Of a stretch of DNA of 64,000 nt, positions 5,308 through 58,750 are shown one piece after another. Numbering within the stretch: the first letter of the stretch is position 1; each line of letters opens with the position of its first letter. The translations under genes were made by a program, and so were the position numbers. Source of the DNA: Alphaproteobacteria bacterium (GTDB lineage: Bacteria > Pseudomonadota > Alphaproteobacteria > UBA11073); NCBI GenBank assembly GCA_965246755.1, contig OZ251979.1, positions 1,566,642 to 1,630,641 of the forward strand. Direction: 5' to 3'. Under the pieces are notes generated by a model, which worked only from the letters and a program-made list of their open reading frames with translations, made no database searches and was not told where the DNA came from.

Positions 5308-6585
5308 TTAACGGATTTGCAACAGCGCATCGAGCATTTGGTCGGCGGTGGTAATTACCTTGGTACCAGCTGAATAAGCGCGCTGTGTTACAATCATGTT
5401 CGCAAATTCATCGGCCAGATCGACGTTGGAAGTTTCCAGCGAGGTTGGCGCGATCTGCCCTGCCCCGGCTTGGCCGGCTTCGCGCAGATTATAGTCGCCA
5501 CTGGCAGAGGTGACGCTATAGGCGTTACCGGATTGCTCTTCTAGGCCGTTTGGCGCGGTAAAGGTTGCCAACGGTATCTTGTATAATTTGGCAAAGGTAC
5601 CGTTACTAAAGGTTGCCGACACTATACCGTCTTTGTCGATTTCAACCCCGGTTCTAAGCCCTAAGGCCGCACCATCCTGAGTGATGCTGGTAACATTATA
5701 AGACGCTTGATATTGGGTGACTGCCGACAGGTCCAAGTCGATCGCTTGCGTGCTTGAGCCATTACCCCAGTTAATACCGGTAATGTTAATGTCGGTTGTA
5801 GTGGCGCTACCCGCGATCGCGTTCAATTTACCATTACCATCGAATGACAATACTTTCGGCGTGCCTAAACTGGCACCAGCGGCATTGGTCACATTCAACA
5901 GCCACTGGTTCGGCCCAGTCGTGCCCGCATTATTGACATTGGTGTGGGAAAACTTCAGCGTTATAGTCTGCGCGGCGCCGAGCGAGTCAAAGACCGTAAT
6001 CTGGCGTGAAAAGCTGGCTGGAGTCGCAGTAGCTGGCGTTGCCACTGTTTGCAAGACATCATCCGATTTTAAGTTTAGCGCAACGTTAGCATTGTTGGTG
6101 GCCTTGGTCTGACCGCCCAGGAATGAGACGTTGACCGGCTCAAGGCTGCTTAAGTTGGCGTTGGCGGACGGAATATTGCCGGCATTGTCCAGCGGCCAGC
6201 CATACAGCACCATGCCCGCCGTGTTGCGCAACAAGCCATTATTATCTTCCTGAAATGAACCGGCGCGTGTGTACAAAAACGGCTCATCATCAGTCGCATT
6301 CTGGCGCACCACGATAAAGCCTTCGCCGGAAATTGCGAGGTCGGTTGCCGACGCGGTTTGTTGCAAGACGCCTTGGGCATCAACTGATGATTTAGTATTC
6401 GCCAAGACACCACCTGGTGAATAAGCGCCGCCGCTGGCTGAGGTGACCAGTGAACTGAAATCAGTGTTGACCTTTTTATAACCAATCGTCCCGACATTCG
6501 CGATGTTATTGGAAATGGTTGACATTTTTTGACTTTGCGCGCTAAGCGCGGAAACCCCAGTAAATAATGCGCCGAATAATGACAT
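5308..6585 (-). CDS. flgE: Flagellar hook protein FlgE
   Basis: MSLFGALFTGVSALSAQSQKMSTISNNIANVGTIGYK N-terminal rod/hook motif; C-terminal NMIVTQRAYSAGTKVITTADQMLDALLQIR. Confidence 0.9.
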   Translation of the reverse strand: MSLFGALFTGVSALSAQSQKMSTISNNIANVGTIGYKKVNTDFSSLVTSASGGAYSPGGVLANTKSSVDAQGVLQQTASATDLAISGEGFIVVRQNATDDEPFLYTRAGSFQEDNNGLLRNTAGMVLYGWPLDNAGNIPSANANLSSLEPVNVSFLGGQTKATNNANVALNLKSDDVLQTVATPATATPASFSRQITVFDSLGAAQTITLKFSHTNVNNAGTTGPNQWLLNVTNAAGASLGTPKVLSFDGNGKLNAIAGSATTTDINITGINWGNGSSTQAIDLDLSAVTQYQASYNVTSITQDGAALGLRTGVEIDKDGIVSATFSNGTFAKLYKIPLATFTAPNGLEEQSGNAYSVTSASGDYNLREAGQAGAGQIAPTSLETSNVDLADEFANMIVTQRAYSAGTKVITTADQMLDALLQIR

Positions 6586-6630
6586 GGTATGCTCTCCCGT
6601 AGTGTTTTGTGTTGGTGGTTCGATTGCGTG

Positions 6631-7302
6631 TTAAACGTTGCTGCCTGGTAAACTGGCTGAAAGGATTTTGGTCAAATCGGTTGGGATTTTGCCTAACATT
6701 AACTGCAAAGTGCCATCAGCGGCGTTCTGCACGCCGGTTACGCGATTGGTGACATAGGTCGTGGCAGCAACGGAACTGCCGTCTGCTGCCAATGATCCGA
6801 CCGATAGATGATATTGTCCCGCTTTAACAGCATTACCGTCATTATCGGTGCCGTCCCACACCGCAGTGTGACTGCCGATGGCGGTATCGCCATTGAGCGT
6901 TTTAACCAGGTTACCTTTATCATCGATGATGCCGATTTGCGTTTTGTTGGCGGTGCCAGCCAAGCTGTAGTCAATGTTGTAATTACCGCTGGCTGCATAG
7001 TTGAAATCATTGCCCGCCGTTTTAACATCGAGCCCGATATAGCTGAGCGCCGCCTGGGTCTGGATATTGCCTTGCAGGTTGACAAGGTTGGTCAGCTTGT
7101 CATTCATTTTGATCTGCTGTTCAACCTGGCTGTATTGCACCAGCTGCTGGGTAAACTGATTGGTATCGGTCGGCGCCAAAGGATCCTGGTTTTTCAATTG
7201 CGTGGTGAGCAATTTTAAAAACGTGTCGAAGTTGCCCGATAAAGATGTGGCATCTTTTTTAGTGGCGGTTGCTGACAGTGCAGCGTTGATTGCGTCAACC
7301 AT
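6631..7302 (-). CDS. flgD: Flagellar hook assembly/capping protein FlgD
   Basis: FDTFLKLLTTQLKNQDPLAPTDTNQFTQQLVQYSQVEQ motif; C-terminal FlgD Ig-like region with HTAVWDGTDNDGNAVKAGQY. Confidence 0.85.
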   Translation of the reverse strand: MVDAINAALSATATKKDATSLSGNFDTFLKLLTTQLKNQDPLAPTDTNQFTQQLVQYSQVEQQIKMNDKLTNLVNLQGNIQTQAALSYIGLDVKTAGNDFNYAASGNYNIDYSLAGTANKTQIGIIDDKGNLVKTLNGDTAIGSHTAVWDGTDNDGNAVKAGQYHLSVGSLAADGSSVAATTYVTNRVTGVQNAADGTLQLMLGKIPTDLTKILSASLPGSNV

Positions 7303-7313
7303 TGGTCGTCCCC

Positions 7314-8756
7314 TTATATTTTGACATCAACCCGGCCGTCATTGGTGGTGCCGTGTGGCAGCATCGCAAAGGTGCGGGTGACAGTATCTGTGTTTGATGT
7401 TGCAAGCATTGTGCCAAATGCATCATTGTGCGCGGCGGATTTGTGATTGTTTTGCTGTGGTGATTGTCCGCCGTCACGCAAACTGAAACTTAACGTATCG
7501 GCATTGGTATCAAGACCGGCGCTTTGCAACGCGGTTGTTAACGCATCTCCATCTTTTTGCATCAGCTCTAACGTGTCGGCTTTATCAGCGGCGATGTGCG
7601 CCTTGATACGGCCGCCATCAAAACGCAGACGCACTTCAATGCGGCCAAGCTCTTGCGGTTGCAATTGAATAAGCATGGTCTGATTATGACCGCTGAGCGC
7701 CAGTTTTTGCATTTGCACGCTGACCATAACGCTGGCAGGATGAACCGGGGTGGCGGTCCGGGCTTGCTGGGCCAGATAGGCATCCAGTTTTTCTGTGGTG
7801 ATATTAGTATTGTTGGTTGGCAGTGTTTGGGAAATCAACTGCATTGGCATAGTGTCCAAATTTTTATTATCGCTGGTTAGCAGCGGATTAAATTTGTCAT
7901 CACTAACCGCCGCCACCGCAATAGCTGGCTGTTCAACAACCGCGTTAGAAACTTCGGTCAGGTTAAGTATTTTTTCAGGTGCTGGAATGTCGCCGGCGGC
8001 CTCTATAGCATGCGGCGCCCGCAGATGTCCGGCCACGCGTGTCATGTACATAATCCCCGGATCTTTAACCGGTGTTAAGCTGACATTGGCATCGTTATCA
8101 GCCTGGGGCAGGCGTGCGGTGGTCGCCGCCACAGGATTTTCTGAAACGTCCGCAGTGTTTGTGCCATCATCATGTGCAACCGGCGCGGCTTGATCGGCGG
8201 ATTTCGCCAGCAACTGCTTGACCTTATCGTTCAAAGTCACGAGCAGGCTGGGGTCGTTGGTTGCGGTCATCTTACCCAACAGGTCTTTGAAACCTTGCGT
8301 TTGTGCGGCATCAGTGGCGGCAAATTTTTCGAGATCTTTTAAAACCGCCGGATCGAACTTGGCTGTTAGATCAGCTGATAATGTGTTGCCTTTGCTTAAC
8401 GCAGCCAAGGCGGCGCTCACATCGCCGGCTAACAGCTGGCCTGACATCAATTGTTGCAGATTTGGAAACTGCTGCAACAACGCTGCCAGCTTAGCCGTTT
8501 CGGCGTCGGATAGTTTTAAATCCTGATTGTCTTTGTGAGGTGTCGCCAGATTTTGAACTTTTTTCAGCAAGGCACTGCCTTTATCATTAAGCGCAGCCAA
8601 TTGACTGTCACCGGACAAAGCCGCCATTAGTTGCTGCAGAAAATCTTGCGGCGTATCTTGTTTATCAGCGATCACGGCACTGTTTTTAGCAGGGGCTGGC
8701 GCAGCCTGATTAACAAAAGTGGTGATTTGTGGTAATGCAGCCATGATGGATCCCAA
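7314..8756 (-). CDS. fliK: Flagellar hook-length control protein FliK
   Basis: Low-complexity N-terminal region; C-terminal Flg_hook-type domain (QPQELGRIEVRLRFDGGRIKAHIAADKADTLELMQKDGDALTTALQSAGL); position after flgD. Confidence 0.7.
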   Translation of the reverse strand: MGSIMAALPQITTFVNQAAPAPAKNSAVIADKQDTPQDFLQQLMAALSGDSQLAALNDKGSALLKKVQNLATPHKDNQDLKLSDAETAKLAALLQQFPNLQQLMSGQLLAGDVSAALAALSKGNTLSADLTAKFDPAVLKDLEKFAATDAAQTQGFKDLLGKMTATNDPSLLVTLNDKVKQLLAKSADQAAPVAHDDGTNTADVSENPVAATTARLPQADNDANVSLTPVKDPGIMYMTRVAGHLRAPHAIEAAGDIPAPEKILNLTEVSNAVVEQPAIAVAAVSDDKFNPLLTSDNKNLDTMPMQLISQTLPTNNTNITTEKLDAYLAQQARTATPVHPASVMVSVQMQKLALSGHNQTMLIQLQPQELGRIEVRLRFDGGRIKAHIAADKADTLELMQKDGDALTTALQSAGLDTNADTLSFSLRDGGQSPQQNNHKSAAHNDAFGTMLATSNTDTVTRTFAMLPHGTTNDGRVDVKI

Positions 8757-9039: not shown

Positions 9040-10230
9040 ATGGCAACGGCAGCATCAAAAAAGAAAATTGTATCTAAACAATTAGTTAAATCAAAAAAAC
9101 TTACAAAATCAGTTAAATCACCTGTGAAAGCAAAAATGCCAGTTAAAAAAACGGTCGCCAAAAACATCACAACAAAAACAAAAGCCGTCACTAAACCTGT
9201 CGTTACAAAAACCGTTAAAGCTACTCAGTCTAAAGTCAAAGCTAAAAGTATGCCGGTCAAAGGTAAGGTAGCTAGCAAGGCGAAGCCGGTGGCGAAAAAG
9301 GTTGTAAAGCCAGTGGCTAAAAAAGCCGTGTCCAAGCCTATGGCCAAAACTCTTGCAAAAAAAACCATCATTCAAAAGCCGGTTGCCAAAGCCGCTAAAA
9401 TTGTAGCAAAACCGGCCATCACCGCAAAAACCGTGACTAAAGTCAGTAAGGCGGCCGCCGTGCAGCCTGCTAATAATAATCAGCTGCCTGCAATTGCCGT
9501 CGCCGCGCCGAAAAAGGTTAAAGCGCCAGCGCGCAACAAGAAACAAAAGGCGCTGGATAAAAAACTGGCGCGGACTTTGGTTAAAATCGCTAATGCCGGC
9601 CGCACCGGTCTGGCCAGCACGGGCGTGCAATCCGCGGCGGATGCCGCGTTGCGCGCCACGATGGCGATGGCCGCCAATACCAATAATGCACAAACCGCCG
9701 CGCCAGTGGTGGCGGTGGCTCCGGCCCAGCCAGCCAAATTGGAATTCTCCACCGGTGAAATGGTGGTCTATCCCGCCCACGGCGTTGGCCGGGTGGAAGG
9801 CGTTGAAACGCACACGATTGCCGGTACGGATGTCAAACTGTTCAAAATTACCTTTGAACATGACAAGATGACGTTAAAAGTGCCGGTGCAACGCGCCACC
9901 GGCTCCGGTCTGCGCCGCCTGTCGTCCAAGGATGTCATGAAAAATGCCATGGAAACACTGCGTGGCCGCCCGCGCATTCGCCGCGTCATGTGGTCACGCC
10001 GTGCGCAGGAATATGAGCAAAAGATTAACAGCGGCGATCCGGTCGCCATTGCCGAGGTCTTGCGCGACCTGCGCCGCAACGCGGAGTCGGGCGAGCAGTC
10101 TTATAGCGAACGTCAAATCTTTCAGAACGCGTTAGATCGTTTGGCGCGTGAAGTGGCTGCGGTTGAAAAAATTGAACATGAGAAAGCCGTTAAAAAATTG
10201 GAAGATGTGTTGACAAAAACGGCGGCCTAA
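9040..10230 (+). CDS. cdnL: CarD/CdnL-family transcription factor with ~230-aa N-terminal histone-H1-like Lys/Ala/Val/Thr-rich domain
   Basis: C-terminal 165 aa: FSTGEMVVYPAHGVGRVEGVETHTIAGTDVKLFKITFEHDKMTLKVPV...SERQIFQNALDRLAREVA = CarD_CdnL_TRCF domain; N-terminal KKxVAKP/KAVTKP repeats. Confidence 0.8.
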   Translation: MATAASKKKIVSKQLVKSKKLTKSVKSPVKAKMPVKKTVAKNITTKTKAVTKPVVTKTVKATQSKVKAKSMPVKGKVASKAKPVAKKVVKPVAKKAVSKPMAKTLAKKTIIQKPVAKAAKIVAKPAITAKTVTKVSKAAAVQPANNNQLPAIAVAAPKKVKAPARNKKQKALDKKLARTLVKIANAGRTGLASTGVQSAADAALRATMAMAANTNNAQTAAPVVAVAPAQPAKLEFSTGEMVVYPAHGVGRVEGVETHTIAGTDVKLFKITFEHDKMTLKVPVQRATGSGLRRLSSKDVMKNAMETLRGRPRIRRVMWSRRAQEYEQKINSGDPVAIAEVLRDLRRNAESGEQSYSERQIFQNALDRLAREVAAVEKIEHEKAVKKLEDVLTKTAA

Positions 10231-10656: not shown

Positions 10657-10739
10657 AAATGAATTGCTTTGCCATAGGCTGACAGCACGCTTTCGTGCAG
10701 CATTTCGGATAGGGTTGGATGCGGGAAGATGGTGTGCAT
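10657..10739. repeat. Direct repeat copy 1: orphan duplicate of the last 28 codons of lpdA, with the adjacent hairpin terminator aaattcatttagaaatgaatt
   Basis: 81/84 nt identical to 11428-11511; encodes MHTIFPHPTLSEMLHESVLSAYGKAIHF, identical to the LpdA C-terminus; all 3 differences are synonymous. Confidence 0.85.
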
Positions 10740-11086
10740 TATATTTTTTCCTGTTGGCGTGCTTTAGCCAATTGCTGTTGCTGCAGCATAAATTCACGCA
10801 ATACAGCATTCATACGCGATTGGTAACCGCGGCCAAATGATTTAAACCAAGTTACTACATCATTATCAAAACGGATGGTTAGTTGGTTTTTGCGTTCTTG
10901 AAAGCTTTGCATCTTTGTAGCCAGATCTTCTAGGCCATGCACAGCAACGCTATTTTCCCAGTCAATTTCATAAGGCAAAACATCATCCTCATCAGCCAAG
11001 ATTTCAGCTTCGGTCACGGCAACACGCGACCAATCGGTCTTACCCTTTAATTTTTTTAAATCTTCGATAGTGTGAGATTTCAGCAT
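10739..11086 (-). CDS. brnA: BrnA-type antitoxin (DUF4415 N-terminal region plus ribbon-helix-helix C-terminus)
   Basis: KGKTDWSRVAVTEAEILADEDDVLP and TIRFDNDVVTWFKSFGRGYQSRMNAVLREFM match BrnA; overlaps the upstream toxin gene. Confidence 0.7.
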   Translation of the reverse strand: MLKSHTIEDLKKLKGKTDWSRVAVTEAEILADEDDVLPYEIDWENSVAVHGLEDLATKMQSFQERKNQLTIRFDNDVVTWFKSFGRGYQSRMNAVLREFMLQQQQLAKARQQEKI

Positions 11087-11315
11087 CCCTTGCTCTCCTC
11101 ATCGAAATAATGCGAATGACGGACACGCGCATCGTGATAATAACTGAAATGAACCGATTGTCTAAAAGACCGGTAGCAACAAAACGTAACTCTTCATTTC
11201 TATGGGTAGGCAGTAAAATCGGTTTATTTTCAAAAAATCTTGCAACATCTTCAAAATCCAATCCATGCTTGGCTAAATTTGACAGCTGCTTCTCTTCATC
11301 CCATTCAAATTGCAT
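11040..11315 (-). CDS. brnT: BrnT-type toxin (DUF497, RelE-fold ribonuclease)
   Basis: MQFEWDEEKQLSNLAKHGLDFEDVARFF is the hallmark BrnT N-terminus; ~90 aa. Confidence 0.8.
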   Translation of the reverse strand: MQFEWDEEKQLSNLAKHGLDFEDVARFFENKPILLPTHRNEELRFVATGLLDNRFISVIITMRVSVIRIISMRRARDAEISHYRRFKKIKG

Positions 11316-11425: not shown

Positions 11426-12826
11426 CTAAAAATGAATTGCTTTGCCATAGGCTGACAGCACGCTTTCATGCAACATTTCGGATAGGGTTGGATGCGGGAA
11501 AATGGTGTGCATCAAGTCCGCCTCGGTTGTTTCCATGGTTTTGGCAATGTTATAACCCTGGATTAGTTCAGTGACTTCAGTGCCGATCATATGCGCACCG
11601 AGCAATTCACCGGTTTTGGCATCAAAGATGGTTTTGATTAAACCTTCGGGTTCACCAAGCGCAATCGCCTTGCCATTACCGATAAACGGAAACTTGCCAA
11701 CCTTGAGCGTATAACCTTTTTCGCGTGCTTTGGCTTCGGTATAGCCAACCGAGGCAACCTGCGGCGTGCAATAGGTACAGCCGGGAATGTTGGTCACATT
11801 CAAGGGATGCACGCCTGGTATGCCAAAGATTTTTTCAACACATATGACGCCTTCATGGCTGGCTTTGTGCGCGAGCCACGGCGGCCCCGCGACATCGCCA
11901 ATCGCATAAACACCCTTTTCCGCCGTTTCGCACCACTGATTGATAACAATCTGGCCGCGCTCAACTTTAATCTTGGTATTTTCCAGGCCGATGTTTTCGA
12001 CGTTGCCAATGATGCCAACTGCAGAAATCACGCGATCAACCGTCAGCGTGTCAATTTTGCCGCCCGCCTCGATAGTAGCGGTCACATTATCCTGGCTTTT
12101 ATCGAGCTTTACAACTTTGGCGCCGGTTTTGATGGTCATACCCTGTTTTTCAAACGCCTTGCGCGCAAAGGCGGAGACCTCGTCATCCTCCACCGGCAGC
12201 ACACGGTCCATGATTTCAACCACCGTGACCTGCGCGCCCAGCGCATTATAAAAGCTGGCGAATTCAATGCCGATCGCGCCGCTGCCGATCACCAGTAATG
12301 ACTTCGGCATCTGCTGCGGCACCATCGCCTCGCGTGAGGTCCAAACCAGTTTGCCGTCTGGCTCCAGTCCCGGCAATATGCGGGGACGCGCGCCGATCGC
12401 CAGCACGATATGCGGTGCGGCGAGGGTCGCGGCATCTTTATTATCTTTACTGACTTTTAATTGGCCCTTGCCGAGCAAAGTCCCCTGCCCGTCAAAAACG
12501 GTAATCTTGTTTTTCTTCATCAAATGCTTGATGCCGCCGACCAACTGTGCCGATACATCGCGCGAACGTTTGACGATTTTGGACAGATCAAATGCCTGAT
12601 CCTTCGCCGAGACGCCATACTCATCAAGATGATGCAAGAGGTGGTAAATTTCAGCCGAGCGCAACAGTGCCTTGGTTGGAATACAGCCCCAGTTAAGGCA
12701 GATGCCGCCTAGATGTTCACGCTCTACCAGTGCGACTTTTTTGCCCAGCTGCGCCGCGCGGATCGCCGCCACATAACCGCCTGGCCCACCGCCGACAATA
12801 ATAATGTCAAAGTTTTCAGACGTCAT
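11426..12826 (-). CDS. lpdA: Dihydrolipoyl dehydrogenase (E3)
   Basis: IIVGGGPGGYVAAIRAAQLG FAD motif, redox-active GGICLNWGCIPTK disulfide, C-terminal dimerisation domain with HAHPTLSE-type motif. Confidence 0.9.
   Translation of the reverse strand: MTSENFDIIIVGGGPGGYVAAIRAAQLGKKVALVEREHLGGICLNWGCIPTKALLRSAEIYHLLHHLDEYGVSAKDQAFDLSKIVKRSRDVSAQLVGGIKHLMKKNKITVFDGQGTLLGKGQLKVSKDNKDAATLAAPHIVLAIGARPRILPGLEPDGKLVWTSREAMVPQQMPKSLLVIGSGAIGIEFASFYNALGAQVTVVEIMDRVLPVEDDEVSAFARKAFEKQGMTIKTGAKVVKLDKSQDNVTATIEAGGKIDTLTVDRVISAVGIIGNVENIGLENTKIKVERGQIVINQWCETAEKGVYAIGDVAGPPWLAHKASHEGVICVEKIFGIPGVHPLNVTNIPGCTYCTPQVASVGYTEAKAREKGYTLKVGKFPFIGNGKAIALGEPEGLIKTIFDAKTGELLGAHMIGTEVTELIQGYNIAKTMETTEADLMHTIFPHPTLSEMLHESVLSAYGKAIHF
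11428..11511. repeat. Direct repeat copy 2 (functional 3' end of lpdA)
   Basis: See copy 1; this copy is in frame with the intact lpdA. Confidence 0.85.
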
Positions 12827-13071
12827 ATGCTAATACTTTCACTGTAATTTTTTGTCCCAAACAATTGCGCGACCCATCCGCCGATTTTTGGAAACAAGGC
12901 ATATACATGATTTTTGACTATATTATCAACGTGTTGTGCCGTGCGACATGTAATTATAAGTCCTGACTTGCCTTGTACCCGCTCAATCTCAAAATCCTGC
13001 ACCAATTCAGGCAAATCAAAGCGGTCTAAAATTTTGTAAGCGCGCAATTGCGCAGCAGTTGGACGTGGCAT
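12823..13071 (-). CDS. Small hypothetical protein between pdhC and lpdA
   Basis: 82-aa ORF with 4-nt overlaps to both neighbours (translationally coupled); no recognisable family. Confidence 0.4.
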   Translation of the reverse strand: MPRPTAAQLRAYKILDRFDLPELVQDFEIERVQGKSGLIITCRTAQHVDNIVKNHVYALFPKIGGWVAQLFGTKNYSESISI

Positions 13072-14345
13072 TACAGCAATAATCCAATTGGGTTTTCAAT
13101 AAAATCTTTAAATGCCGCGATAAACTCCGCGCCGACTGCGCCATCAACCACACGGTGATCGACGGATAATGTAACCGTCATCACAGTCGCGATTTCCAAC
13201 TTGTCATTTTTAACGATGGCACGTTTTTCACCTGCGCCAACCGCCAGAATGCAGCCCTGCGGCGGATTGATGATCGCCGCAAATTGTTTGATGCCGAACA
13301 TACCGAGGTTAGAGATGGTAAAGGTGCCGCCCTGGAATTCCTCCGGCTTTAGTTTGTTCTCACGCGCGCGCAGGCCGAGGTCTTTCATTTCTTTCGAAAT
13401 GTCCGTTAGCGATTTGCCTTCCGCTTTTTTGATGATGGGTGTCACCAGGCCGTTCGGCGTCGCGACCGCGACCGAAACATCGGCATGTTTAAACTTTAAT
13501 ATCGCGTCTTCCGTCCAGGCGGCGTTAGCGGCAGGAATTTTGATCAGTGCCGCGGCAACTGCTTTGATTACCATGTCATTGACAGAAATCTTGGCAATAG
13601 TCTGCGCAGCATTATATTGCGCGCGAATATCCAGCAATTTATCAATTTCGCAATCCACCGTCAGGTAGAAATGCGGCACATTTTGTTTGGACTCGGTCAG
13701 ACGCTTAGCGATAATTTTTCGGATCTGACTGTTTGGTTCCGCCACATAGTCCATGCCCAGCATATCGGCCAATTGTCTGGCGTTAGGGCCCGACATAGTT
13801 GGCGCATTCACTTTAGCTGACGCTACGGCGCGGTCAGCTTGTCCCTTTGGAGCAGACTCGACATCCGCCACAACGATGCGGCCATGCGGGCCGGTGCCTT
13901 TAATAGTGGCGAGGGTAACACCTTTTTCAGCCGCTATACGTTTGGCGAGTGGCGACGCGAAGACACGGGCACCAGATGAAAGTTGGAGATTAGAAATTGG
14001 AGACTGGACAGGCGCAGATTGAACGGCCGGTGACGGTGCGTTGTTGGTGGCAATTGGTGTTTCGGTTTTTTTATCCGACGTCCCGCTTCTGACTTCCATC
14101 TCACCCTCTTCCAGCAAGATGGCGATGGGCGTATTGACGGCAACACCCTCACTCCCTTCGGCAATCAGGATTTTACCGATCCTGCCCTCATCCACGGCTT
14201 CAACTTCCATGGTTGCCTTGTCAGTTTCAATTTCAGCGATGACCTGGCCGCTTTTAACAGTGTCGCCTTCTTTCACTGTCCATTTGGACAATTTGCCCTC
14301 GGTCATGGTGGGCGACAGCGCTGGCATTAAAATTTCAATACTCAT
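13071..14345 (-). CDS. pdhC: Pyruvate dehydrogenase E2 dihydrolipoamide acetyltransferase
   Basis: N-terminal lipoyl domain ([17 protein letters not shown]), E3-binding domain, catalytic domain with DHRVVDGA. Confidence 0.9.
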
Positions 14346-15184
14346 GCGAATACTTCTTTAGATGGATGTTGCGTTGATAGATAAAGACGTGGCCGTAAAA
14401 ACCAATACAAGATTGAAAATAATATTGAATTAATAAGGCAAATTAAAAAACACAATTTACCTACTTTCTGAGCGTATATAGTTAGATGTTGTAAGGTGTC
14501 AAAATTGGTAGGCAATATGAAGAAAAAATTATAAGAAATAGATGATGCAATTAGTGATGATGCACATGACGTAATTAAGAAAGACAATAAATTTGGTTTG
14601 CAAATTCTGTGGATCAAATTCCAAACAATAAAAACAACGAAAGGTACGGTTATAAAATTAGCTAATAATCCAAACGATGGCTCTACGGATCCTCCCAAAA
14701 ATTTTTCTTCAAAATTAATACATAAAAAAAGTAAAATCACATTGAATAAGCCATATACTACCAATCCAAATTCAACCAAAAAACAATAAGCTAAAATTCC
14801 AAGTTTTTTCTGTTTGAAAAAAAGCTTTCCAAACACAATTGTTGCAGGAATCAAAAACAGAAAATCAAAGGCGTAACCAATCGGCGTGCTTTGCTGACCA
14901 CCGACCGCACCAACCGCAATTATTGGCATAAAAAATAGTACGAGGATGGCCCAACCGATTAAACGGTTTTGTTTCTCTATAAAGTTGTTCCCACGTTTTA
15001 AAATTTTCCAAATTATGTTCATGATTAATGGAAATATCAAAAGCGGGATTAAAATAAAATACCCAAAAAAAAGTCCTGAATATACAAATAATGTTGATCC
15101 GCCACCCATTAATGCGACAAACAAAGAATACAGAGACACATAGATAGCTTCATTTTTCTGCAAAAGATTAAATTTAATAAGCAT
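14342..15184 (-). CDS. Hypothetical polytopic membrane protein (AT-rich) inserted between pdhB and pdhC
   Basis: 280-aa ORF, ~8 predicted hydrophobic helices, Phe/Leu/Ile-rich; GC far below flanks; overlaps pdhB stop (TAATG) and pdhC start (ATGA). Confidence 0.55.
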
Positions 15185-16563
15185 TATTTGTTACAGACTT
15201 GCTTCACAGCCGCGACAATATCTTCCACCTGCGGCAATGCCAGATGCTCAAGATTGGCGGCATAGGGCAATGGCACATCTTTCGCGCAGACGCGCGCGAC
15301 CGGCGCATCCAGATAATCAAAGGCATGTTCCATCATCAGCGCCGCCATTTCGGAGCCGATACCGTAAGAAGGCCAGCTTTCCTCAACAGACACCAGGCGG
15401 TTGGTTTTCTTGACACTTTTAACAATCGTGCCGACATCGAGCGGGCGGATGGTGCGCAGGTTAATGACCTCCGCATCTATCCCCTGCTCCGCCAATTGTT
15501 CAGCGGCCTGCAACGCCTTACCGACCATAATTGAATAGGCCGTGATAGTGACATCTTTACCTGCGCGTTCAACCTTAGCCTTGCCAATCGGCAGCACATA
15601 GTCTTCATCCGTCGGCACATCAAACGATTGGCCATACATCATTTCGTTTTCGAGAAAGACCACCGGGTTGGGGTTACGGATGGCCGTCTTCATTAGTCCC
15701 TTGCAGTCCGCGGCCGACCATGGCGCGACGACCAACAGGCCCGGGATATGCCCGTACCAGCTGGCGTAGCATTGTGAATGCTGCGCGCCGACGCGCGACG
15801 CCGCGCCATTGGGGCCGCGGAAAACAATCGGGCAGCCCATCTGGCCGCCCGACATATATAATGTCTTGGCGGCAGAATTGATAATATGGTCAATCGCCTG
15901 CATGGCAAAATTCCAGGTCATGAATTCCACAATCGGTTTTAAACCGCCGAAGGCCGCGCCAACACCAAGACCTGCAAAACCATGTTCCGTGATCGGCGTA
16001 TCAATAACGCGGGTTGGGCCGAATTCATCCAGCAAGCCTTGGGATACCTTGTAAGCGCCGTTGTATTCGGCAACTTCCTCACCCATCAAAAAGACGGTTT
16101 TATCGGCGCGCATTTCTTCAGCCATTGCATCGCGCAAGGCTTCACGGACGGTTTGGTTTTTGACGTCTTTAAAAAAACGCGTCTCATCAAAATCGTCATC
16201 AGCGAACGTCATGTGCTGCTCGGGGTAATCGGTTTTGAGGGCAGTAGCAGCGGCAGCACTAGGTTCACCCAAATCTTTAATTTGCGGTACAGCTTGCGCA
16301 GGTGCAGCAGAGACTGTTTCACCTGCGGCGCCCAACACGGCGATTGGCGCATTGACCGCCACGGCTTCCGTGCCTTCCGGCACCAGGATTTTTAGCAACG
16401 TGCCTTCATCAACTGCCTCGACCTCCATGGTCGCTTTGTCGGTTTCAATTTCGCACAGGACCTGGCCACTTTTAACGGCGTCGCCTTCCGCCTTCAGCCA
16501 GCGAGCGATTTTGCCCTCGGTCATCGTCGGCGACAGCGCCGGCATTAAAACATCAATGGTCAT
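15184..16563 (-). CDS. pdhB: Pyruvate dehydrogenase E1 beta subunit with N-terminal lipoyl domain
   Basis: N-terminal lipoyl domain [22 protein letters not shown]...[17 protein letters not shown], then transketolase-like E1-beta. Confidence 0.9.
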
Positions 16564-16575
16564 TTCAAAATATCC

Positions 16576-17547
16576 TTAAGCAGCCTTTAACACGTCAGTC
16601 CATAAATCTTCCAGCGGCGGTTCCGGCGATTGTTTGGCAAATTCGACCGCCTCCAGGCAGATGGTTTTAATGCGGTCTTCAATTTCTTTAAATCCTGCTT
16701 CATCCAGCATTTTTTTGTCGGTTAGATATTTGCGCAGGCGTTCAATCGGGTCGCGCTGTTCGCGGGTCTCTTCCAGCTCTTCTTTGGTGCGATATTTGGC
16801 GGGGTCTGACATTGAATGCCCGCGATAACGATAAGTTTGAATTTCCAGCAAGACGGGCCCTTTCCCGCTGCGGATATAATCCATGGCATCGTTGGCAGCT
16901 TTGCGCACTGCCAGCACATCCATACCATCGACCTGTTCGCCCGGGATGCCATAGGCCTCGCCGCGTTTATAAAGTTCGCCCGCAGCATGGCGCGCCTGCG
17001 AGGTGCCCATGCCATACTTATTATTTTCAATGACAAACAGCGCCGGCAATTTCCACAGCGCCGCCATATTAAATGTCTCATACACTTGGCCCTGGTTAGA
17101 GGCGCCATCCCCCATATAGGCGACATTGACGCCGCCATCATTATTATATTTGTGCGCGAAGGCCAGACCGGCGCCAATCGGGATTTGCGCGCCGACAATA
17201 CCGTGCCCGCCGTAAAAGTTTTTTTCGCGGCTGAACATATGCATGGAGCCGCCCTTGCCGCGTGAATAACCGCCGCTGCGCCCGGTAAGTTCTGCCATAA
17301 CACCCTTGGCATCCATGCCACAGGCCAGCATATGGCCGTGGTCGCGGTAGGCGGTAATCACACTGTCTTGGGATTGCTGAACGGAATTGATACCGACGAC
17401 GACGGCTTCTTGGCCAATATACAAATGGCAAAAACCGCCGATAAGGCCCATGCCATAAAGCTGCCCAGCGCGTTCTTCAAACCGCCGGATCAGCAGCATG
17501 TCTTCAAACAGTTTTAACAGCAGTTGTTTATTTTTATGATCGGCCAC
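16576..17547 (-). CDS. pdhA: Pyruvate dehydrogenase E1 alpha subunit
   Basis: RRFEERAGQLYGMGLIGGFCHLYIGQEAV...; TPP-binding GDG..NQG motif. Confidence 0.9.
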   Translation of the reverse strand: MADHKNKQLLLKLFEDMLLIRRFEERAGQLYGMGLIGGFCHLYIGQEAVVVGINSVQQSQDSVITAYRDHGHMLACGMDAKGVMAELTGRSGGYSRGKGGSMHMFSREKNFYGGHGIVGAQIPIGAGLAFAHKYNNDGGVNVAYMGDGASNQGQVYETFNMAALWKLPALFVIENNKYGMGTSQARHAAGELYKRGEAYGIPGEQVDGMDVLAVRKAANDAMDYIRSGKGPVLLEIQTYRYRGHSMSDPAKYRTKEELEETREQRDPIERLRKYLTDKKMLDEAGFKEIEDRIKTICLEAVEFAKQSPEPPLEDLWTDVLKAA

Positions 17548-17668: not shown

Positions 17669-19645
17669 TTAAATGACGTTTTTATTGAGTGCGGCTTTTT
17701 GCCGCAATTCGCGATCCAGTTTACGTTTCAATTCATCCTGGTTAAATGGTTTAGAGATATAATCTGTCATCCCGGCACTCAGGCATTTTTCGCGATCGCC
17801 TGCCAGCGCATAAGCCGTCATGCCAATGATCGATATTGGCGGCAAATTATGCATTTTTTCATGCTGGCGGATTTGCGCGGTGGCTTCCAATCCATTCATG
17901 TTCGGCATTTGCACATCCATGAGGATGGCATCGTAAATGTGTGCGGTTGCCTTTTCAATCGCCTCATGGCCGTTGTTGGCAACCTCATAACGATAACCAA
18001 AATGTTCTAAAATCGTGGTTGCCACCAGAATATTCGGTGCATAATCTTCCACTAATAAAATTAACGGTGCGTTAGCAGGTTGTTCCAATTTATCAAATTG
18101 AATTATCGAAGCGGTCGGATAGTGAACCGCGGCAGCGGGTTTTTTTTCTTTGGCAATTGTAAGCGGCAATATCACGGTAAAGGTTGAACCCTGGCCCATC
18201 GTGCTGTCCAACGTCACACTGCCATGCATATTTTCTACCAATGATTTGGTAATCGCCAGACCGAGGCCGGTGCCGCCGTAATGACGGTTAATGCTGGTAT
18301 CTGCCTGAATAAATTTTTGAAATATCGCCTCGCGCTTTTCTTCGGCAATGCCAATGCCAGTGTCTGACACTGCTATCACAATATTTTCAGAGTTTTTTTG
18401 CGCGCCAGGCTCAGTGTGAATTTTGATATTTACGATACCTTGCGTGGTAAATTTAATGGCATTACTGCATAAATTCATAATTATCTGGCGCAGCCGCGTG
18501 GTGTCACCAATAAAATTTTTATGACGGATGCTTTCAATATCAGTCATGAGCGACAGATTTTTTTCTACAGCCCGCACGCTCAATATATTGATAATTTCCT
18601 TCATTAAATCATAAAAATTAAACTGTATCTGTTCTAGTTCAAAGCTGCGCGACTCAATTTTAGAAATATCTAGCAGGTCGTTAATCAGAGCCAGTAAGGT
18701 ATCCGCGCTCAGCTGCAGCGTTTTGATAAACTCTTTTTGCTGGGGCGTCAGCGGCACACTGACCGCCAAAATATTCGCAAGACCGATCACCACATTCATT
18801 GGCGTGCGGATTTCATGGCTCATATTCGCCAAAAATTCCGACTTCGCTAGATTGGCTTCTTCGGCTTTTTCCTTGGCCTCACGCAGCGTATTTTCCAATA
18901 ACCGCTGGTCGGTGATATCGGTCGCGGTACCGAACCAGCGCAATATTTTACCTTTATCATCCTGCATCGGCATTGCGCCGGCTAAAAACCAGCGATAGTC
19001 GCCGTCTTTACCGCGCAGCGGGAATGTCGCCTCCCACTTTTCGCCTTTGGTCACCATCGCATCCCGATACTGCATAAAATCTTTATAATAATCAGGGTGA
19101 TGGATTTTAACGCGTTCTTTGTCGGACATCGTTTTAAACGTGTAACCGGTATAGTCATAAAACCGCTGATTGTACCAGGTTGTCTGGCCCGCCGCATCGG
19201 TCATCCAGGCCAACTGCGGAATCGCATTGGCCATTTGGCGAAATCTTTCCTCGCTGCGTTCAACTTCGTCTTCGGCGCGTTTACGCGATGTTACATCCGA
19301 CAATGAAAATACCACGCCCAAAAATTCATGGCCGTTTAAAATCGGCTGGGCGGCGATCCGGAACCAATTGCCATGGTGATCAAACGATTCACGGTATTGG
19401 GGTTGGCAGGTTTCCTTGACTAATTGCAGTGCAATTGGCGTATGCTGATAATTGAGACTGGCCAGGTAATCGCGGAGATTTTCTGACTTTAAGCGGTCCG
19501 CATCCAGCGGCATGATATGCCCCAACGCGCGATTATGTCGCACCATCATCAAATCTTTATCTAGCAAACATATGCCATCGGGCAACGAGTCAAAAATTAT
19601 TGACCACTCATTATCAAAAATTGGTTGCGGTTGGGTCGTGGACAT
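17669..19645 (-). CDS. Hybrid sensor histidine kinase/response regulator with PAS domains
   Basis: HisKA H-box MSHEIRTPMN, HATPase_c, C-terminal receiver (LLVEDYAPN...DAILMDVQMPNMNG). Confidence 0.85.
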   Translation of the reverse strand: MSTTQPQPIFDNEWSIIFDSLPDGICLLDKDLMMVRHNRALGHIMPLDADRLKSENLRDYLASLNYQHTPIALQLVKETCQPQYRESFDHHGNWFRIAAQPILNGHEFLGVVFSLSDVTSRKRAEDEVERSEERFRQMANAIPQLAWMTDAAGQTTWYNQRFYDYTGYTFKTMSDKERVKIHHPDYYKDFMQYRDAMVTKGEKWEATFPLRGKDGDYRWFLAGAMPMQDDKGKILRWFGTATDITDQRLLENTLREAKEKAEEANLAKSEFLANMSHEIRTPMNVVIGLANILAVSVPLTPQQKEFIKTLQLSADTLLALINDLLDISKIESRSFELEQIQFNFYDLMKEIINILSVRAVEKNLSLMTDIESIRHKNFIGDTTRLRQIIMNLCSNAIKFTTQGIVNIKIHTEPGAQKNSENIVIAVSDTGIGIAEEKREAIFQKFIQADTSINRHYGGTGLGLAITKSLVENMHGSVTLDSTMGQGSTFTVILPLTIAKEKKPAAAVHYPTASIIQFDKLEQPANAPLILLVEDYAPNILVATTILEHFGYRYEVANNGHEAIEKATAHIYDAILMDVQMPNMNGLEATAQIRQHEKMHNLPPISIIGMTAYALAGDREKCLSAGMTDYISKPFNQDELKRKLDRELRQKAALNKNVI

Positions 19646-27028: not shown

Positions 27029-27718
27029 ATGCCCGTTTACACATTATTCATCCTTGCTTGCATCATTTTACCCTATCTGATTGGTTCTATACCATTTGGA
27101 CTGATCCTGACCCGCGCCGCAGGCCTGGGCGATGTGCGTAAGATCGGCTCCGGCAATATTGGCGCAACCAACGTGCTGCGCACTGGGCGTAAGGACTTAG
27201 CGATTGCGACATTATTATGCGACGCGGCGAAGGGTGCGCTGGTCATTATCGCTTATCGCTATTTTATCGAACACAAGGTTATGCCGCAGATGGATTATTA
27301 TATGGGCATCACCTTTGGTGGCACACCTGCGCAAAAAGAACTTGTACAATGGTTGCCCTATGTGCCGCTGCTGGCGGGCGGCATGGTCATCATCGGCCAT
27401 ATGTTTTCCATTTGGCTGCGCTTTAAAGGCGGCAAGGGCGTTGCCACCTCGCTCGGCGTCATCACGGCGGTCAGCTGGCCGGTGGGAGTGGCAGCTTTTG
27501 GTACCTGGTTGCTGGTTGCTTTTGTCAGCCGTTATTCATCCCTGTCAGCAATGGCCGCCGCCGCCGCCGCGCCAATCTATGCCTGGTATTTTACCGACCA
27601 CGTAACCGCCCTTGCCTTTCTGGGTATTGCACTGCTCGTAATCACGAGGCATTACAAAAATATCAGAAATTTGCTGCAAGGCGCTGAAGCAAAAATTAAA
27701 TTAAAAAATTCCGTTTAG
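27029..27718 (+). CDS. plsY: Glycerol-3-phosphate acyltransferase PlsY
   Basis: GSIPFGL...GSGNIGATNVLR...KGGKGVAT motifs. Confidence 0.85.
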   Translation: MPVYTLFILACIILPYLIGSIPFGLILTRAAGLGDVRKIGSGNIGATNVLRTGRKDLAIATLLCDAAKGALVIIAYRYFIEHKVMPQMDYYMGITFGGTPAQKELVQWLPYVPLLAGGMVIIGHMFSIWLRFKGGKGVATSLGVITAVSWPVGVAAFGTWLLVAFVSRYSSLSAMAAAAAAPIYAWYFTDHVTALAFLGIALLVITRHYKNIRNLLQGAEAKIKLKNSV

Positions 27719-27996
27719 GGTTCGGATTTTGAACTCGTATTAAATTTTCTGATCATATTAACGTTGGTTTTTTTAGGTTTCATAATTATATCGTTTCCAG
27801 ACAAAACCTTAGTAAAAGAAGCTCTGTTTAATGGTGCGGTTATATTGTCATAGCTTGAATTATTGGATTTATGTAAAGAGTATACAGCAGCAGCAATAGG
27901 AGGAATACCAATAACAACTCCAATAAAAAATCCAGATACGATATGTGGAGCTATTTTTTTATTAGACATGTAGTTTTTCATAACATAAAATAGCAT
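27715..27996 (-). CDS. Hypothetical small single-TM protein (AT-rich)
   Basis: 93-aa ORF in a low-GC patch between plsY and dprA; one hydrophobic helix. Confidence 0.3.
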   Translation of the reverse strand: MLFYVMKNYMSNKKIAPHIVSGFFIGVVIGIPPIAAAVYSLHKSNNSSYDNITAPLNRASFTKVLSGNDIIMKPKKTNVNMIRKFNTSSKSEP

Positions 27997-31940: not shown

Positions 31941-32213
31941 ATGAAAATGGAGCTTAACCTGCCTGACAATTTACCGCCACCGCTGGTTAATCATATCGGC
32001 CAATTGCTTGACCGTATTCAAGATGATCCGTCGTTTGCCGAAGATATTTGGTTACACGATGATGCACCGGATAATTTTGTTATGACGCCGGAAATTCGCA
32101 CCAAAATTGAAGAGGGTTTGGCTGATATTGCTGTAGGACGTATTTTGACCTCTGAACAAGTTGATAAAAATTTGGCCGAATATCGGGCACAATGGCTAGC
32201 TCAGAACAATTAA
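31941..32213 (+). CDS. Putative antitoxin paired with the downstream ParE-like toxin
   Basis: 90-aa acidic protein; overlaps the toxin gene by 22 nt; C-terminal TPEIRTKIEEGLADIAVGRILTSEQV resembles addiction-module antidote proteins. Confidence 0.5.
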   Translation: MKMELNLPDNLPPPLVNHIGQLLDRIQDDPSFAEDIWLHDDAPDNFVMTPEIRTKIEEGLADIAVGRILTSEQVDKNLAEYRAQWLAQNN

Positions 32214-32524
32214 AGGTTATATATTCTGAAAGTGCCCAAAAAGATTTAAAGGAAATCTGGCGTTGGAATGCTAAAACTTATTGTTTAAATCATGCTGATA
32301 AATATATCGAACAGTTAAAGACAAAAATCTGTATTTTAGAATCGGACCCCCATCGTGGCACTGCAATAATTGAATATCAGGATTTACGGGGCCTGCTGAT
32401 TAAAAAACGTAACAGTAAACATGGGCATATGGCCTTTTATAAAATCAATCAAAGCACAATTTATATAGCGCGCATTCTACATACTGCAATGAATTGGCAA
32501 ATTCATCTAGATGGCAATGCATGA
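32192..32524 (+). CDS. parE: ParE/RelE-family type II toxin
   Basis: 110 aa; SAQKDLKEIWRW..., C-terminal HGHMAFYKINQSTIYIARILHTAMN matches the ParE H.I.YR....I.I.RILH..MD signature. Confidence 0.75.
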   Translation: MASSEQLKVIYSESAQKDLKEIWRWNAKTYCLNHADKYIEQLKTKICILESDPHRGTAIIEYQDLRGLLIKKRNSKHGHMAFYKINQSTIYIARILHTAMNWQIHLDGNA

Positions 32525-36924: not shown

Positions 36925-37437
36925 TTATGATTCTGGTGCAGGCGTAGATGAGGGTATTGGTGATGATGTTTGAGTAACAGCATCACTTCCCTGCAAAATG
37001 TTAACAGCATTAAAGTCAGTTGCAGTACGCCTAAATGGGTTAGGAGTACTTTTTACGCGGGCCGCCTTTAACTCGGTAAATTTTTCGTACCTATATTCTT
37101 CCCAAGATAAACCGTCATCGTTAATTGCGGCAACTAATTTGTTAACATCTTTTAAATTACTAACGCGAGACAGTGTATCTGTTAAGTAATTAACTTTTGG
37201 CTCAATTAGTAAATCTGGAATTATTTTCACGCGGTGTGCTAGCTCTTGAACTGCATCCACAAGACCATCTTCATTGATCTGTTTATCTAGGCCCATGTCG
37301 AGTTCACGAACAATATTCAATATGGTGCTAATAAGACCAAGAGTTGGCGATTTTGTTCTAAATGCACGACTTGCCCATGACCCGCTTTGAAATTCTCCGT
37401 AAGCTTTTAAGTTTTCATTTTCAAAATCAAAAGACAT
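36925..37437 (-). CDS. Hypothetical protein (AT-rich)
   Basis: 170-aa ORF in a low-GC patch between cysQ and prfB; no family recognised. Confidence 0.4.
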   Translation of the reverse strand: MSFDFENENLKAYGEFQSGSWASRAFRTKSPTLGLISTILNIVRELDMGLDKQINEDGLVDAVQELAHRVKIIPDLLIEPKVNYLTDTLSRVSNLKDVNKLVAAINDDGLSWEEYRYEKFTELKAARVKSTPNPFRRTATDFNAVNILQGSDAVTQTSSPIPSSTPAPES

Positions 37438-46400: not shown

Positions 46401-46799
46401 ATGATTAACTTAATAGATAAATCTAGGGAGATACAAATGAACCGGAGAGACCAGCTATTAAATGTTATTGGCATAATAGAAGATTATTTGAATTCTTTTG
46501 AATTTTGGGTGACCCGTGACGAAGACCTTACTTTGTTACTTAAGGCTGATAAGTGTTTTGAAAGCTTTCCCCGTCAAGAACAGGCTATTTTTAAAAAATT
46601 TGGTATTAATGTAACAGTAGAAGGAACTTTGTTGCGGTTGGATACGACGCAAGAAAATTTGAAAAGTAATCTTAGTAAGATGGTTTCTTATCGAGGAGGT
46701 TTTAATTGGGGACGCGTAAAAACTTTGCCAGAACCGCGACGAAATGATGCGCGTGTGTTTAGAAATGCTAGCCAATGGGGTGGCTGGGTTGGCCCTTAA
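46401..46799 (+). CDS. Hypothetical protein (AT-rich)
   Basis: 132-aa ORF in a low-GC patch; no family recognised. Confidence 0.3.
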   Translation: MINLIDKSREIQMNRRDQLLNVIGIIEDYLNSFEFWVTRDEDLTLLLKADKCFESFPRQEQAIFKKFGINVTVEGTLLRLDTTQENLKSNLSKMVSYRGGFNWGRVKTLPEPRRNDARVFRNASQWGGWVGP

Positions 46800-58270: not shown

Positions 58271-58750
58271 TTAAGCAGCAAGGCTGAGAGTCAAATCAGC
58301 ATTACGTTTTTGATACCGTAGTCGCTGTAAAGTATTTTGACTTTTGCCAGCCACCCCAAATGCTTCTAAAAGCTGCAAACGTACAGCAGGCAAACCCGCG
58401 CTTTCACTAGCTTCAGAAATAACGCCAACAATTTCATCCTTAGACATATCTTGTTTTGCGAACACACTGGCAAACATATGTTTATCAAAATCATCACAAT
58501 CCTCATAATAATGTTTGCACAATTCACCAAAAAACAGGGTGAGCGCTTTCATATCATCCGTGCAAAAAGCAGGAGTGATTACCACACGCTGTAAACTTTG
58601 CAGATATATGGATCCGTCAATGTTAAGATCGCCTATTAATCTACGCGCGTGTTTAATATCGCGCTCTTCCAGATTCTGCAGCCATCGCTCGGCCAGCATA
58701 CTATTTAATTTATCAGATGGTACAAAATCCCTAATTTTACTGGTGGTCAC
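58271..58750 (-). CDS. Hypothetical protein (AT-rich)
   Basis: 159-aa ORF in a low-GC patch; no family recognised. Confidence 0.4.
   Translation of the reverse strand: MTTSKIRDFVPSDKLNSMLAERWLQNLEERDIKHARRLIGDLNIDGSIYLQSLQRVVITPAFCTDDMKALTLFFGELCKHYYEDCDDFDKHMFASVFAKQDMSKDEIVGVISEASESAGLPAVRLQLLEAFGVAGKSQNTLQRLRYQKRNADLTLSLAA

Follow-up and report, generated by a model that had tools for sequence, protein, structure and literature searches.

How does a long, AT-rich gene without detectable relatives come to lie inside a core metabolic operon, overlapping both of its neighbors? The question is raised by contig OZ251979.1 (assembly GCA_965246755.1) of an alphaproteobacterium of the UBA11073 lineage, from which we analyzed a 64-kb stretch (positions 1,566,642 to 1,630,641), hereafter referred to as the window. 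Its minus strand carries a pyruvate dehydrogenase (PDH) operon with the gene order pdhA-pdhB-orfX-pdhC-orf82-lpdA, in which orfX denotes an open reading frame (ORF) of 280 codons. The explanation that we favor, with moderate confidence, is that orfX encodes an eight-helix inner-membrane protein and is an orphan acquired by horizontal transfer, that it was inserted precisely at the pdhB/pdhC junction, and that read-through and reinitiation across its frame provide a bridge to pdhC. The features on which the argument turns are the following (window coordinates).

pdhB, 15184..16563, minus strand: pyruvate dehydrogenase E1 beta, with Pfam Biotin_lipoyl, Transket_pyr and Transketolase_C domains.

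TAATG junction, 15182..15186, minus strand: pdhB stop TAA (15186-15184) and orfX start ATG (15184-15182), which share one base.

orfX, 14342..15184, minus strand: orphan gene of 280 amino acids with an ATG start, a GC content of 0.316 and about eight predicted transmembrane helices.

ATGA junction, 14342..14345, minus strand: orfX stop TGA (14344-14342) overlapping the pdhC start ATG (14345-14343).

pdhC, 13071..14345, minus strand: E2 dihydrolipoamide acetyltransferase, with Pfam lipoyl, E3_binding and 2-oxoacid_dh domains (E = 4.4e-86 for the last).

Both overlaps can be read directly in the sequence. The pdhB/orfX junction reads ...tgt aac aaa TAATG ctt..., the last A of TAA being the first base of ATG, and the orfX/pdhC junction reads ...ttc gcATGAgt att gaa.... 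The flanking genes are complete on either side. The C-terminus of PdhB is full length compared with its relatives, ...VKQVCNK* in the window aligning with ...GVCNR* in L083, one of the comparison loci described below, and the N-terminal lipoyl domain that Pfam detects in the protein is typical of Alphaproteobacteria. The N-terminus of PdhC is likewise intact, and the termini in the window and in L083 agree.

Is orfX a real gene? Its frame contains a single stop codon, its own, compared with 7-31 stops in each of the remaining five frames. Across 2000 shuffled versions that preserved dinucleotide composition, the longest open frame, taken over all six frames, had a mean of 80 codons and a maximum of 162, far short of the 280 codons observed. 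Moreover, the three codon positions differ in base usage (chi-square p = 0.002), T making up 48% of second positions. The encoded protein is strongly hydrophobic, with a grand average of hydropathy (GRAVY) of +1.01, about eight transmembrane-like windows and Leu, Phe and Ile together accounting for 40.7% of residues. The Kyte-Doolittle scale gives eight segments (19-residue means, 1.65-2.52), at approximately residues 16-34, 37-55, 76-94, 105-123, 133-154, 173-191, 199-217 and 244-262. A single-sequence AlphaFold (AF2) model places eight helices over the same stretches, although their packing is unreliable, as indicated by a predicted local distance difference test score (pLDDT) of 51 and a predicted template modeling score (pTM) of 0.29.

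The distribution of charges follows the same layout. Lys and Arg residues number 15 among the 69 residues of 'inside' loops, three among the 56 residues of 'outside' loops, and one within the transmembrane segments. Under the positive-inside rule this bias between alternate loops predicts a topology with both termini inside. Thus, orfX has both properties by which a polytopic alpha-helical inner-membrane protein is generically recognized, hydrophobic segments and positive-inside loops. A search for internal duplication within the protein found none (z = 1.2). Taken together, there is good evidence that orfX is a membrane-protein gene that is real or was so until recently; a chance open frame is disfavored.

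The base composition of orfX stands apart from that of the operon. Its GC content at the first, second and third codon positions is 0.36, 0.31 and 0.28, respectively, whereas pdhA, pdhB, pdhC and lpdA have an overall GC of 0.51-0.545 and a third-position GC (GC3) of 0.55-0.60. The minimum GC of the entire window, 0.309, falls in the 800-nt stretch 14401-15200, and the next lowest value is 0.39. T alone makes up 41.5% of the orfX coding strand. The difference extends to the choice among synonymous codons, with GGA used for 42% of Gly in orfX versus 3% in the pdh genes, GTA for 44% versus 5% of Val, ATA for 24% versus 5% of Ile, and CTG for 4% versus 41% of Leu. The composition of orfX is therefore foreign at all three codon positions as well as in synonymous codon choice. 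At the level of the gene itself, these results bear out the first-pass annotation of this DNA, which had described a 280-residue, Phe/Ile/Leu-rich polytopic membrane protein of no recognized family, of much lower GC than its flanks, between pdhB and pdhC and overlapping the stop of one and the start of the other. The coordinates, strand and start codon were exact, and the hydrophobic helices, whose lack would have spoken against such a protein, are seen as eight segments that coincide with the eight modeled helices.

We next consider whether orfX was inserted or is an old member of the operon. Through PdhB we collected 80 alphaproteobacterial pdh loci, among the matches listed, 76 of which have a downstream lipoyl-domain gene; the best comparators were obtained by using PdhC and PdhB as queries in protein searches, bringing the total to 86 loci. 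The distance between pdhB and pdhC is at most 40 nt in 60 of the 76 loci, 41-100 nt in two and more than 100 nt in 14. None of the 86 loci encodes a relative of orfX, at normal GC or otherwise. The nearest operons of the same gene order, pdhA-pdhB-pdhC-lpdA, are carried by the contigs of L083/L084 and L085/L086. The proteins of L083/L084 are 80% (PdhA), 76% (PdhB), 65% (PdhC) and 76% (LpdA) identical to those of the window; for L085/L086 only PdhB was measured (77%). In L083 no sequence separates pdhB from pdhC, the two genes sharing a direct ATGA overlap (...gta tgc aac cgATGAca atc gaa att tta atg ccc), and this is the same overlap design as that of orfX and pdhC in the window. The pdhC-lpdA overlap in L083 is also ATGA, and L085 is equally compact (the pdhC-lpdA overlap is 4 nt or 1 nt across L083-L086). 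Shared ancestry of the window and L083 loci is supported by a BrnT toxin gene that follows lpdA in both: a remnant immediately after lpdA in L083, which is of metagenomic origin (9181-9252; 79% identity over 24 amino acids) and a BrnT/BrnA toxin-antitoxin pair directly downstream of lpdA in the window (10739-11315, minus strand).

The comparison thus supports the view that orfX was inserted and is not ancestral. An ancestral junction of the form ...aac aaATGAgt att... would turn into that of the window by the gain of an 842-nt block (3n+2 in length), whose first bases would supply a new TAA for pdhB together with the ATG of orfX, and whose frame would then run into the former pdhB stop. It is also conceivable that a 12-nt spacer once separated TAA from ATG. 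Of the 18 nt that precede pdhC, 11 agree with the pdhA-pdhB spacer, a match too weak to choose between this arrangement and an ancestral ATGA. The two genes resemble each other further downstream as well. The lipoyl-coding DNA of pdhC (14115-14360) and that of pdhB (16333-16578) share 75-80% identity over about 225 nt, and a weak likeness continues into the 18 nt that precede either start. The pattern could be explained by gene conversion between these paralogous domains.

An extra gene between pdhB and pdhC is not unprecedented. In Alphaproteobacteria this junction is permissive and repeatedly houses lineage-specific ORFs, mutually unrelated ones filling the gap in 14 of the 76 loci (among them L022, L041, L054, L056, L063-L066, L073, L076 and L078). 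They include DUF5076 ORFs in L022, L063, L064 and L066, a 231-residue ORF in L063, a 179-residue ORF in L056 and several soluble ORFs of 85-115 residues without a family. Two are small and hydrophobic, a 109-residue open frame in L065 (GRAVY 0.85) and a 99-residue ORF in L076 (GRAVY 1.02), and at both loci the GC of the gap is below that of pdhB. The pdhC-lpdA junction is more variable still, with a gap of more than 150 nt in 19 of 48 loci. What sets orfX apart from the other junction ORFs is its length, its extreme composition, the absence of relatives and its tight overlaps with both neighbors.

How complete is that absence? A word-indexed search of 5.8 billion proteins returned only the self-match, on a 1,925,773-bp contig, and phmmer, run exhaustively over 1.84 billion cluster representatives, likewise found orfX itself and nothing else. 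In Pfam, the only matches at E <= 1 were NapE and DUF6814 (E of about 0.03), both below the cut-offs and confined to a single transmembrane stretch; NCBIfam, PHROGs and PADLOC gave no match, nor did PDB sequences at E <= 10. A Foldseek comparison of the orfX model with PDB returned nothing at E <= 0.001, the model being too poor to trust in such a search. No match was found by tblastn and blastn against phage and plasmid collections or by six-frame pattern and tblastn scans of JGI metagenome and viral contigs, and the 64-kb window contains neither a paralog nor a DNA repeat of orfX. A literature search yielded no report of a gene for a membrane protein at the pdhB-pdhC junction. Thus, orfX is an orphan, its sequence being found in a single contig only.

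Several specific assignments were considered and rejected. As a PDH subunit, orfX should resemble one of the component families, yet it matched none of the E1_dh, Transket_pyr/Transketolase_C, lipoyl/E3_binding/2-oxoacid_dh or Pyr_redox models. It did not match the DUF5076 model (PF16826), whereas the junction ORF of L064 does (E = 5e-29). Neither profile nor sequence comparisons with Pfam, NCBIfam and PDB gave a significant match to a known membrane transporter or membrane enzyme. An EamA-like fragment in L085 proved unrelated by comparison, and no similarity was found between orfX and the other low-GC ORFs of the window. Nor does orfX appear to be a mobile element, as no repeats bracket it. 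The surroundings of orfX contain no flanking direct or inverted repeats, the long direct repeats that were found being the paralogous lipoyl domains; there is no integrase nearby, and the only tRNA genes of the window lie at 45.4 and 49.3 kb.

If orfX is an insertion, how might the genes behind it still be expressed? Within orfX no terminator-like site was found on the coding strand, the single promoter-like hexamer pair on that strand is at the background level for AT-rich DNA, and the region contains no Rfam family. Estimated pairing energies of the Shine-Dalgarno (SD) regions with the anti-SD sequence are -0.2 kcal/mol for orfX, -1.3 for pdhC, -5.9 for pdhB and -4.0 for pdhA. In 62 related loci the SD of pdhC has a median energy of -8.5 kcal/mol and a weakest value of -2.9, making that of the window the weakest of 63. 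Overlapping stop and start codons (TAATG and ATGA) without an independent SD are what is expected of a translationally coupled pair. Given the two overlaps, the lack of an SD for orfX and the weak SD of pdhC, reinitiation is the most economical reading, and orfX probably carries translational coupling across the insert.

Put together, the course of events would be as follows. About 842 nt of imported AT-rich DNA would have landed precisely at the stop-start junction of pdhB and pdhC. The inserted gene would be transcribed by read-through from the operon promoter, and ribosomes ending at the UAA of pdhB would reinitiate at the overlapping AUG (UAAUG) and translate orfX. Termination at the orfX UGA, which overlaps the AUG of pdhC (AUGA), would then hand ribosomes over to pdhC, whose own SD is nearly absent. 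A frame that is open over the whole insert would in this way act as a translational bridge and keep the synthesis of E2 and E3 coupled to that of E1. As for the protein itself, it is most likely an accessory passenger in the membrane with no part in PDH catalysis. The ORF with its composition and topology signal, its orphan status, its absence from related operons and the weakness of the SDs are observed; horizontal origin, co-transcription, coupling by termination and reinitiation, and passenger status are the four elements that we infer. The first-pass annotation had likewise taken the ORF to be an insertion of foreign composition that appears integrated into operon translation. The codon usage, the direct pdhB/pdhC overlap in L083-L086 and the short gap in most other loci agree with the former, and the missing SD of orfX and the exceptionally weak one of pdhC with the latter.

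A number of observations weigh against this explanation. The clean positive-inside pattern suggests selection for membrane insertion, and is no less consistent with a functional protein than with a mere bridge. Weak SDs occur at other genes of the window too, so that the weak SD of pdhC is suggestive and supporting but not decisive. The transcription, translation and coupling of orfX are all predictions from sequence. With protein identities of 65-80%, the comparators are distant; the insertion is accordingly not datable, and the ancestral junction is reconstructed rather than observed. The other nearest genome, a 1.79-Mb contig (ctg355596_9x_l, ERZ26165376; L081 and L082) with PdhC 69% and PdhB 75% identical, has pdhB, pdhC and lpdA each apart among unrelated genes and so provides no information on the pdhB-pdhC junction. 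Finally, since neither mobility signatures nor a donor was found (the latter in phage, plasmid, metagenome and viral DNA), composition and absence from relatives are all that argue for horizontal origin.

Could orfX nevertheless serve pyruvate dehydrogenase? It might be a transporter of pyruvate or of a cofactor (thiamine or lipoate), or a membrane tether, recruited for co-production with the enzyme. Its embedding in the operon and apparent co-translation would fit such a role, as would its size and helix count, which are compatible with a small transporter, and the small hydrophobic ORFs at the same junction in L065 and L076. On the other hand, the junction ORFs of other lineages are mutually unrelated and mostly soluble, so that the position implies no shared function. 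Moreover, orfX resembles no transporter model or any other protein, lacks an internal repeat, has foreign codon usage, and has no counterpart in the nearest operons, complete as these are in other respects. We therefore regard a PDH-related function as unlikely.

De novo birth, in which T-rich non-coding DNA came to be translated inside the operon and was then shaped by selection into a membrane protein, would account for the lack of homologs in both protein collections. The T-rich coding strand favors hydrophobic codons, there is a published 'TM-first' precedent in yeast (PMC7005711), and the origin of bacterial orphan genes is still an open question (PMC12315717). However, pdhB and pdhC overlap by 4 nt in the closest relatives with the same gene order, which have no homologous non-genic sequence at the site. 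Relatives without intergenic DNA at the junction mean that the raw DNA was not local and must have been imported. In addition, a 280-codon frame at 32% GC is far beyond what shuffling produces, and eight regular helices, a 15-to-3 charge bias and codon periodicity exceed what is expected of a young random ORF. De novo birth is accordingly rather improbable.

An artifact or a non-functional remnant appears very unlikely. In the first case the contig, which is metagenome-derived, would have been assembled as a chimera; in the second, the insert would be tolerated and its protein unmade or quickly degraded. That orfX is known from a single contig, that the AF2 models of both orfX and orf82 are of low confidence, and that the rare codons ATA, GGA, GTA and TTA are abundant in orfX could be taken in this sense. 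Yet a chimera would hardly supply a pdhB stop together with an ATG, end in frame on ATGA and spare both neighbors; the open frame is statistically exceptional and the topology signal strong, and an untranslated 842-nt spacer before a pdhC almost devoid of an SD would be expected to lower the synthesis of E2 and E3. Weakly constrained membrane proteins can evolve fast and the lineage is sparsely sampled (its best PdhC relative is 69% identical), but an ancestral operon gene that diverged beyond recognition and drifted to low GC is scarcely credible, given that no gene occupies this position in L083-L086, that the gap in 60 of the 76 other loci is too short for one, and that a GC3 of 0.28 within an operon of GC3 0.55-0.60 is unexplained by divergence under the same mutational regime.

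If orfX is a horizontally acquired gene, what known kind of gene does it most resemble? Bacterial ORFans are lineage-restricted, typically short and AT-rich, and usually ascribed to horizontal transfer, as in a study of E. coli (PMC3514957). Whether they arise by transfer, divergence or de novo birth is still under debate (PMC12315717). Like them, orfX has no homolog, is AT-richer than its host, uses atypical codons and is absent at the same site in relatives. Three of the marks of a horizontally acquired orphan gene are accordingly present (no homolog, composition unlike that of the host, absence at the orthologous site), whereas a mobility signature or a donor is not. Unlike the typically short ORFans, orfX encodes 280 amino acids with eight predicted helices, and it lies not in an island and with no mobility genes adjoining, but in a core metabolic operon, overlapping both neighbors. 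The ORFan is thus the closest known kind, fitting the sequence features of orfX in every respect tested except length, with no mobility signatures and no donor found.

Other systems match less well. Stop-start overlaps of the AUGA and UAAUG type mediate translational coupling, as in the E. coli trp operon, where the coupled genes encode functionally related subunits. The resemblance of orfX to such genes lies in the same motifs at both ends, the lack of an SD and the weak SD of the gene that follows; orfX differs in that the middle gene is a foreign orphan and in that coupling is here predicted from the sequence. Like DUF5076 and the other junction ORFs, orfX lies between pdhB and pdhC. DUF5076 proteins, however, are soluble, about 100 residues long, host-like in GC and kept in several loci, whereas the orfX product is a predicted membrane protein, AT-rich in its coding sequence and unique. 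The 'TM-first' model, developed for yeast, describes de novo membrane proteins that arise from thymine-rich sequence as short ORFs in resident intergenic DNA (PMC7005711). The T-rich coding strand, transmembrane-dominated product and lack of homologs recall these cases, but orfX is long and well organized, and its DNA would have been imported, the relatives having no intergenic DNA at the site. What is unusual about orfX is therefore its setting, that of a long orphan membrane-protein gene within a core operon, overlapping both neighbors, with an essential downstream gene apparently dependent on it.

Should this reading be correct, the locus would be a compact natural case of an orphan gene becoming fixed in a core metabolic operon. 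The insert would be precise, with intact neighbors and no expression signals of its own, in front of an essential gene that has almost no ribosome-binding site. Loss or breakage of the orphan would probably cut the synthesis of E2 and E3, and the newcomer would thus be protected whatever its protein does. Such a case would bear on the open question of how bacterial orphan genes originate and persist (PMC12315717). As it comes from one genome, it is a well-documented example rather than a discovery, and it is experimentally tractable.

The operon contains a second orphan, orf82, between pdhC and lpdA. The remaining genes are as follows.

pdhA, 16576..17547, minus strand: pyruvate dehydrogenase E1 alpha, the first gene of the operon, with a GTG start and a Pfam E1_dh match (E = 2.6e-104).

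orf82, 12823..13071, minus strand: second orphan, 82 amino acids, GC 0.42, between pdhC and lpdA.

lpdA, 11426..12826, minus strand: E3 dihydrolipoamide dehydrogenase, the last gene of the operon, with Pfam Pyr_redox_2 and Pyr_redox_dim domains.

The GC3 of orf82 is 0.37, and the gene follows the same design as orfX, with a start reading ctg TAATG cca and an end reading gcat ATGA cg. Clustering at 90% identity groups it with no other protein, it belongs to no family in Pfam or NCBIfam, and none of L083-L086 carries it. The AF2 model of orf82 is poor (pLDDT 52). The presumed insert would measure 248 nt, again 3n+2, a length that the TAATG...ATGA design dictates arithmetically and that adds no independent evidence. 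It appears that orf82 is a further insertion like orfX. One may speculate further that an essential coupled operon admits only foreign inserts with a continuous frame and so collects 'bridging' orphans such as orfX and orf82, and that co-translational insertion of the orfX product would tether pdh mRNA and the nascent E1, E2 and E3 to the inner membrane, giving rise to a membrane-associated PDH or an uptake function. We consider this extension improbable.

Further low-GC genes are found elsewhere in the window. A 93-residue ORF at 27715-27996 (minus strand; GC 0.30, GC3 0.24), no less rich in AT than orfX, contains a single hydrophobic segment, matches nothing in Pfam and lies between genes of normal GC. 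A low-GC ORF of the ParE toxin family (31941-32524, plus strand; E = 1.4e-13) overlaps the end of a preceding 90-residue ORF without a Pfam match, an arrangement that suggests a toxin-antitoxin pair. Additional low-GC ORFs without a family, at 36925-37437, 46401-46799 and 58271-58750, are scattered among housekeeping genes, and the BrnT/BrnA module is likewise among the low-GC genes. Within this AT-rich accessory gene pool of the genome, orfX is the most extreme member. Orphan ORFs of low GC (0.39-0.41) are also found next to pdhB in the 1.79-Mb sister genome, where the opposite strand encodes them.

The wider neighborhood of the operon has several features of its own. Immediately upstream of pdhA is a gene for a hybrid PAS histidine kinase (17669-19645). 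Flagellar hook genes (FlgE, FlgD and FliK-like) at 5308-8756 on the minus strand, near the operon, indicate that the source alphaproteobacterium is motile; its genome is small, with a contig of about 1.93 Mb. Between the hook genes and the BrnT/BrnA pair, a CarD-like transcription factor is encoded at 9040-10230 on the plus strand. Its CarD_TRCF_RID and CarD_C domains span residues 236-387, and they are preceded by an N-terminal extension of about 230 residues, rich in Lys, Ala, Val and Pro, that resembles a histone-H1-like tail.

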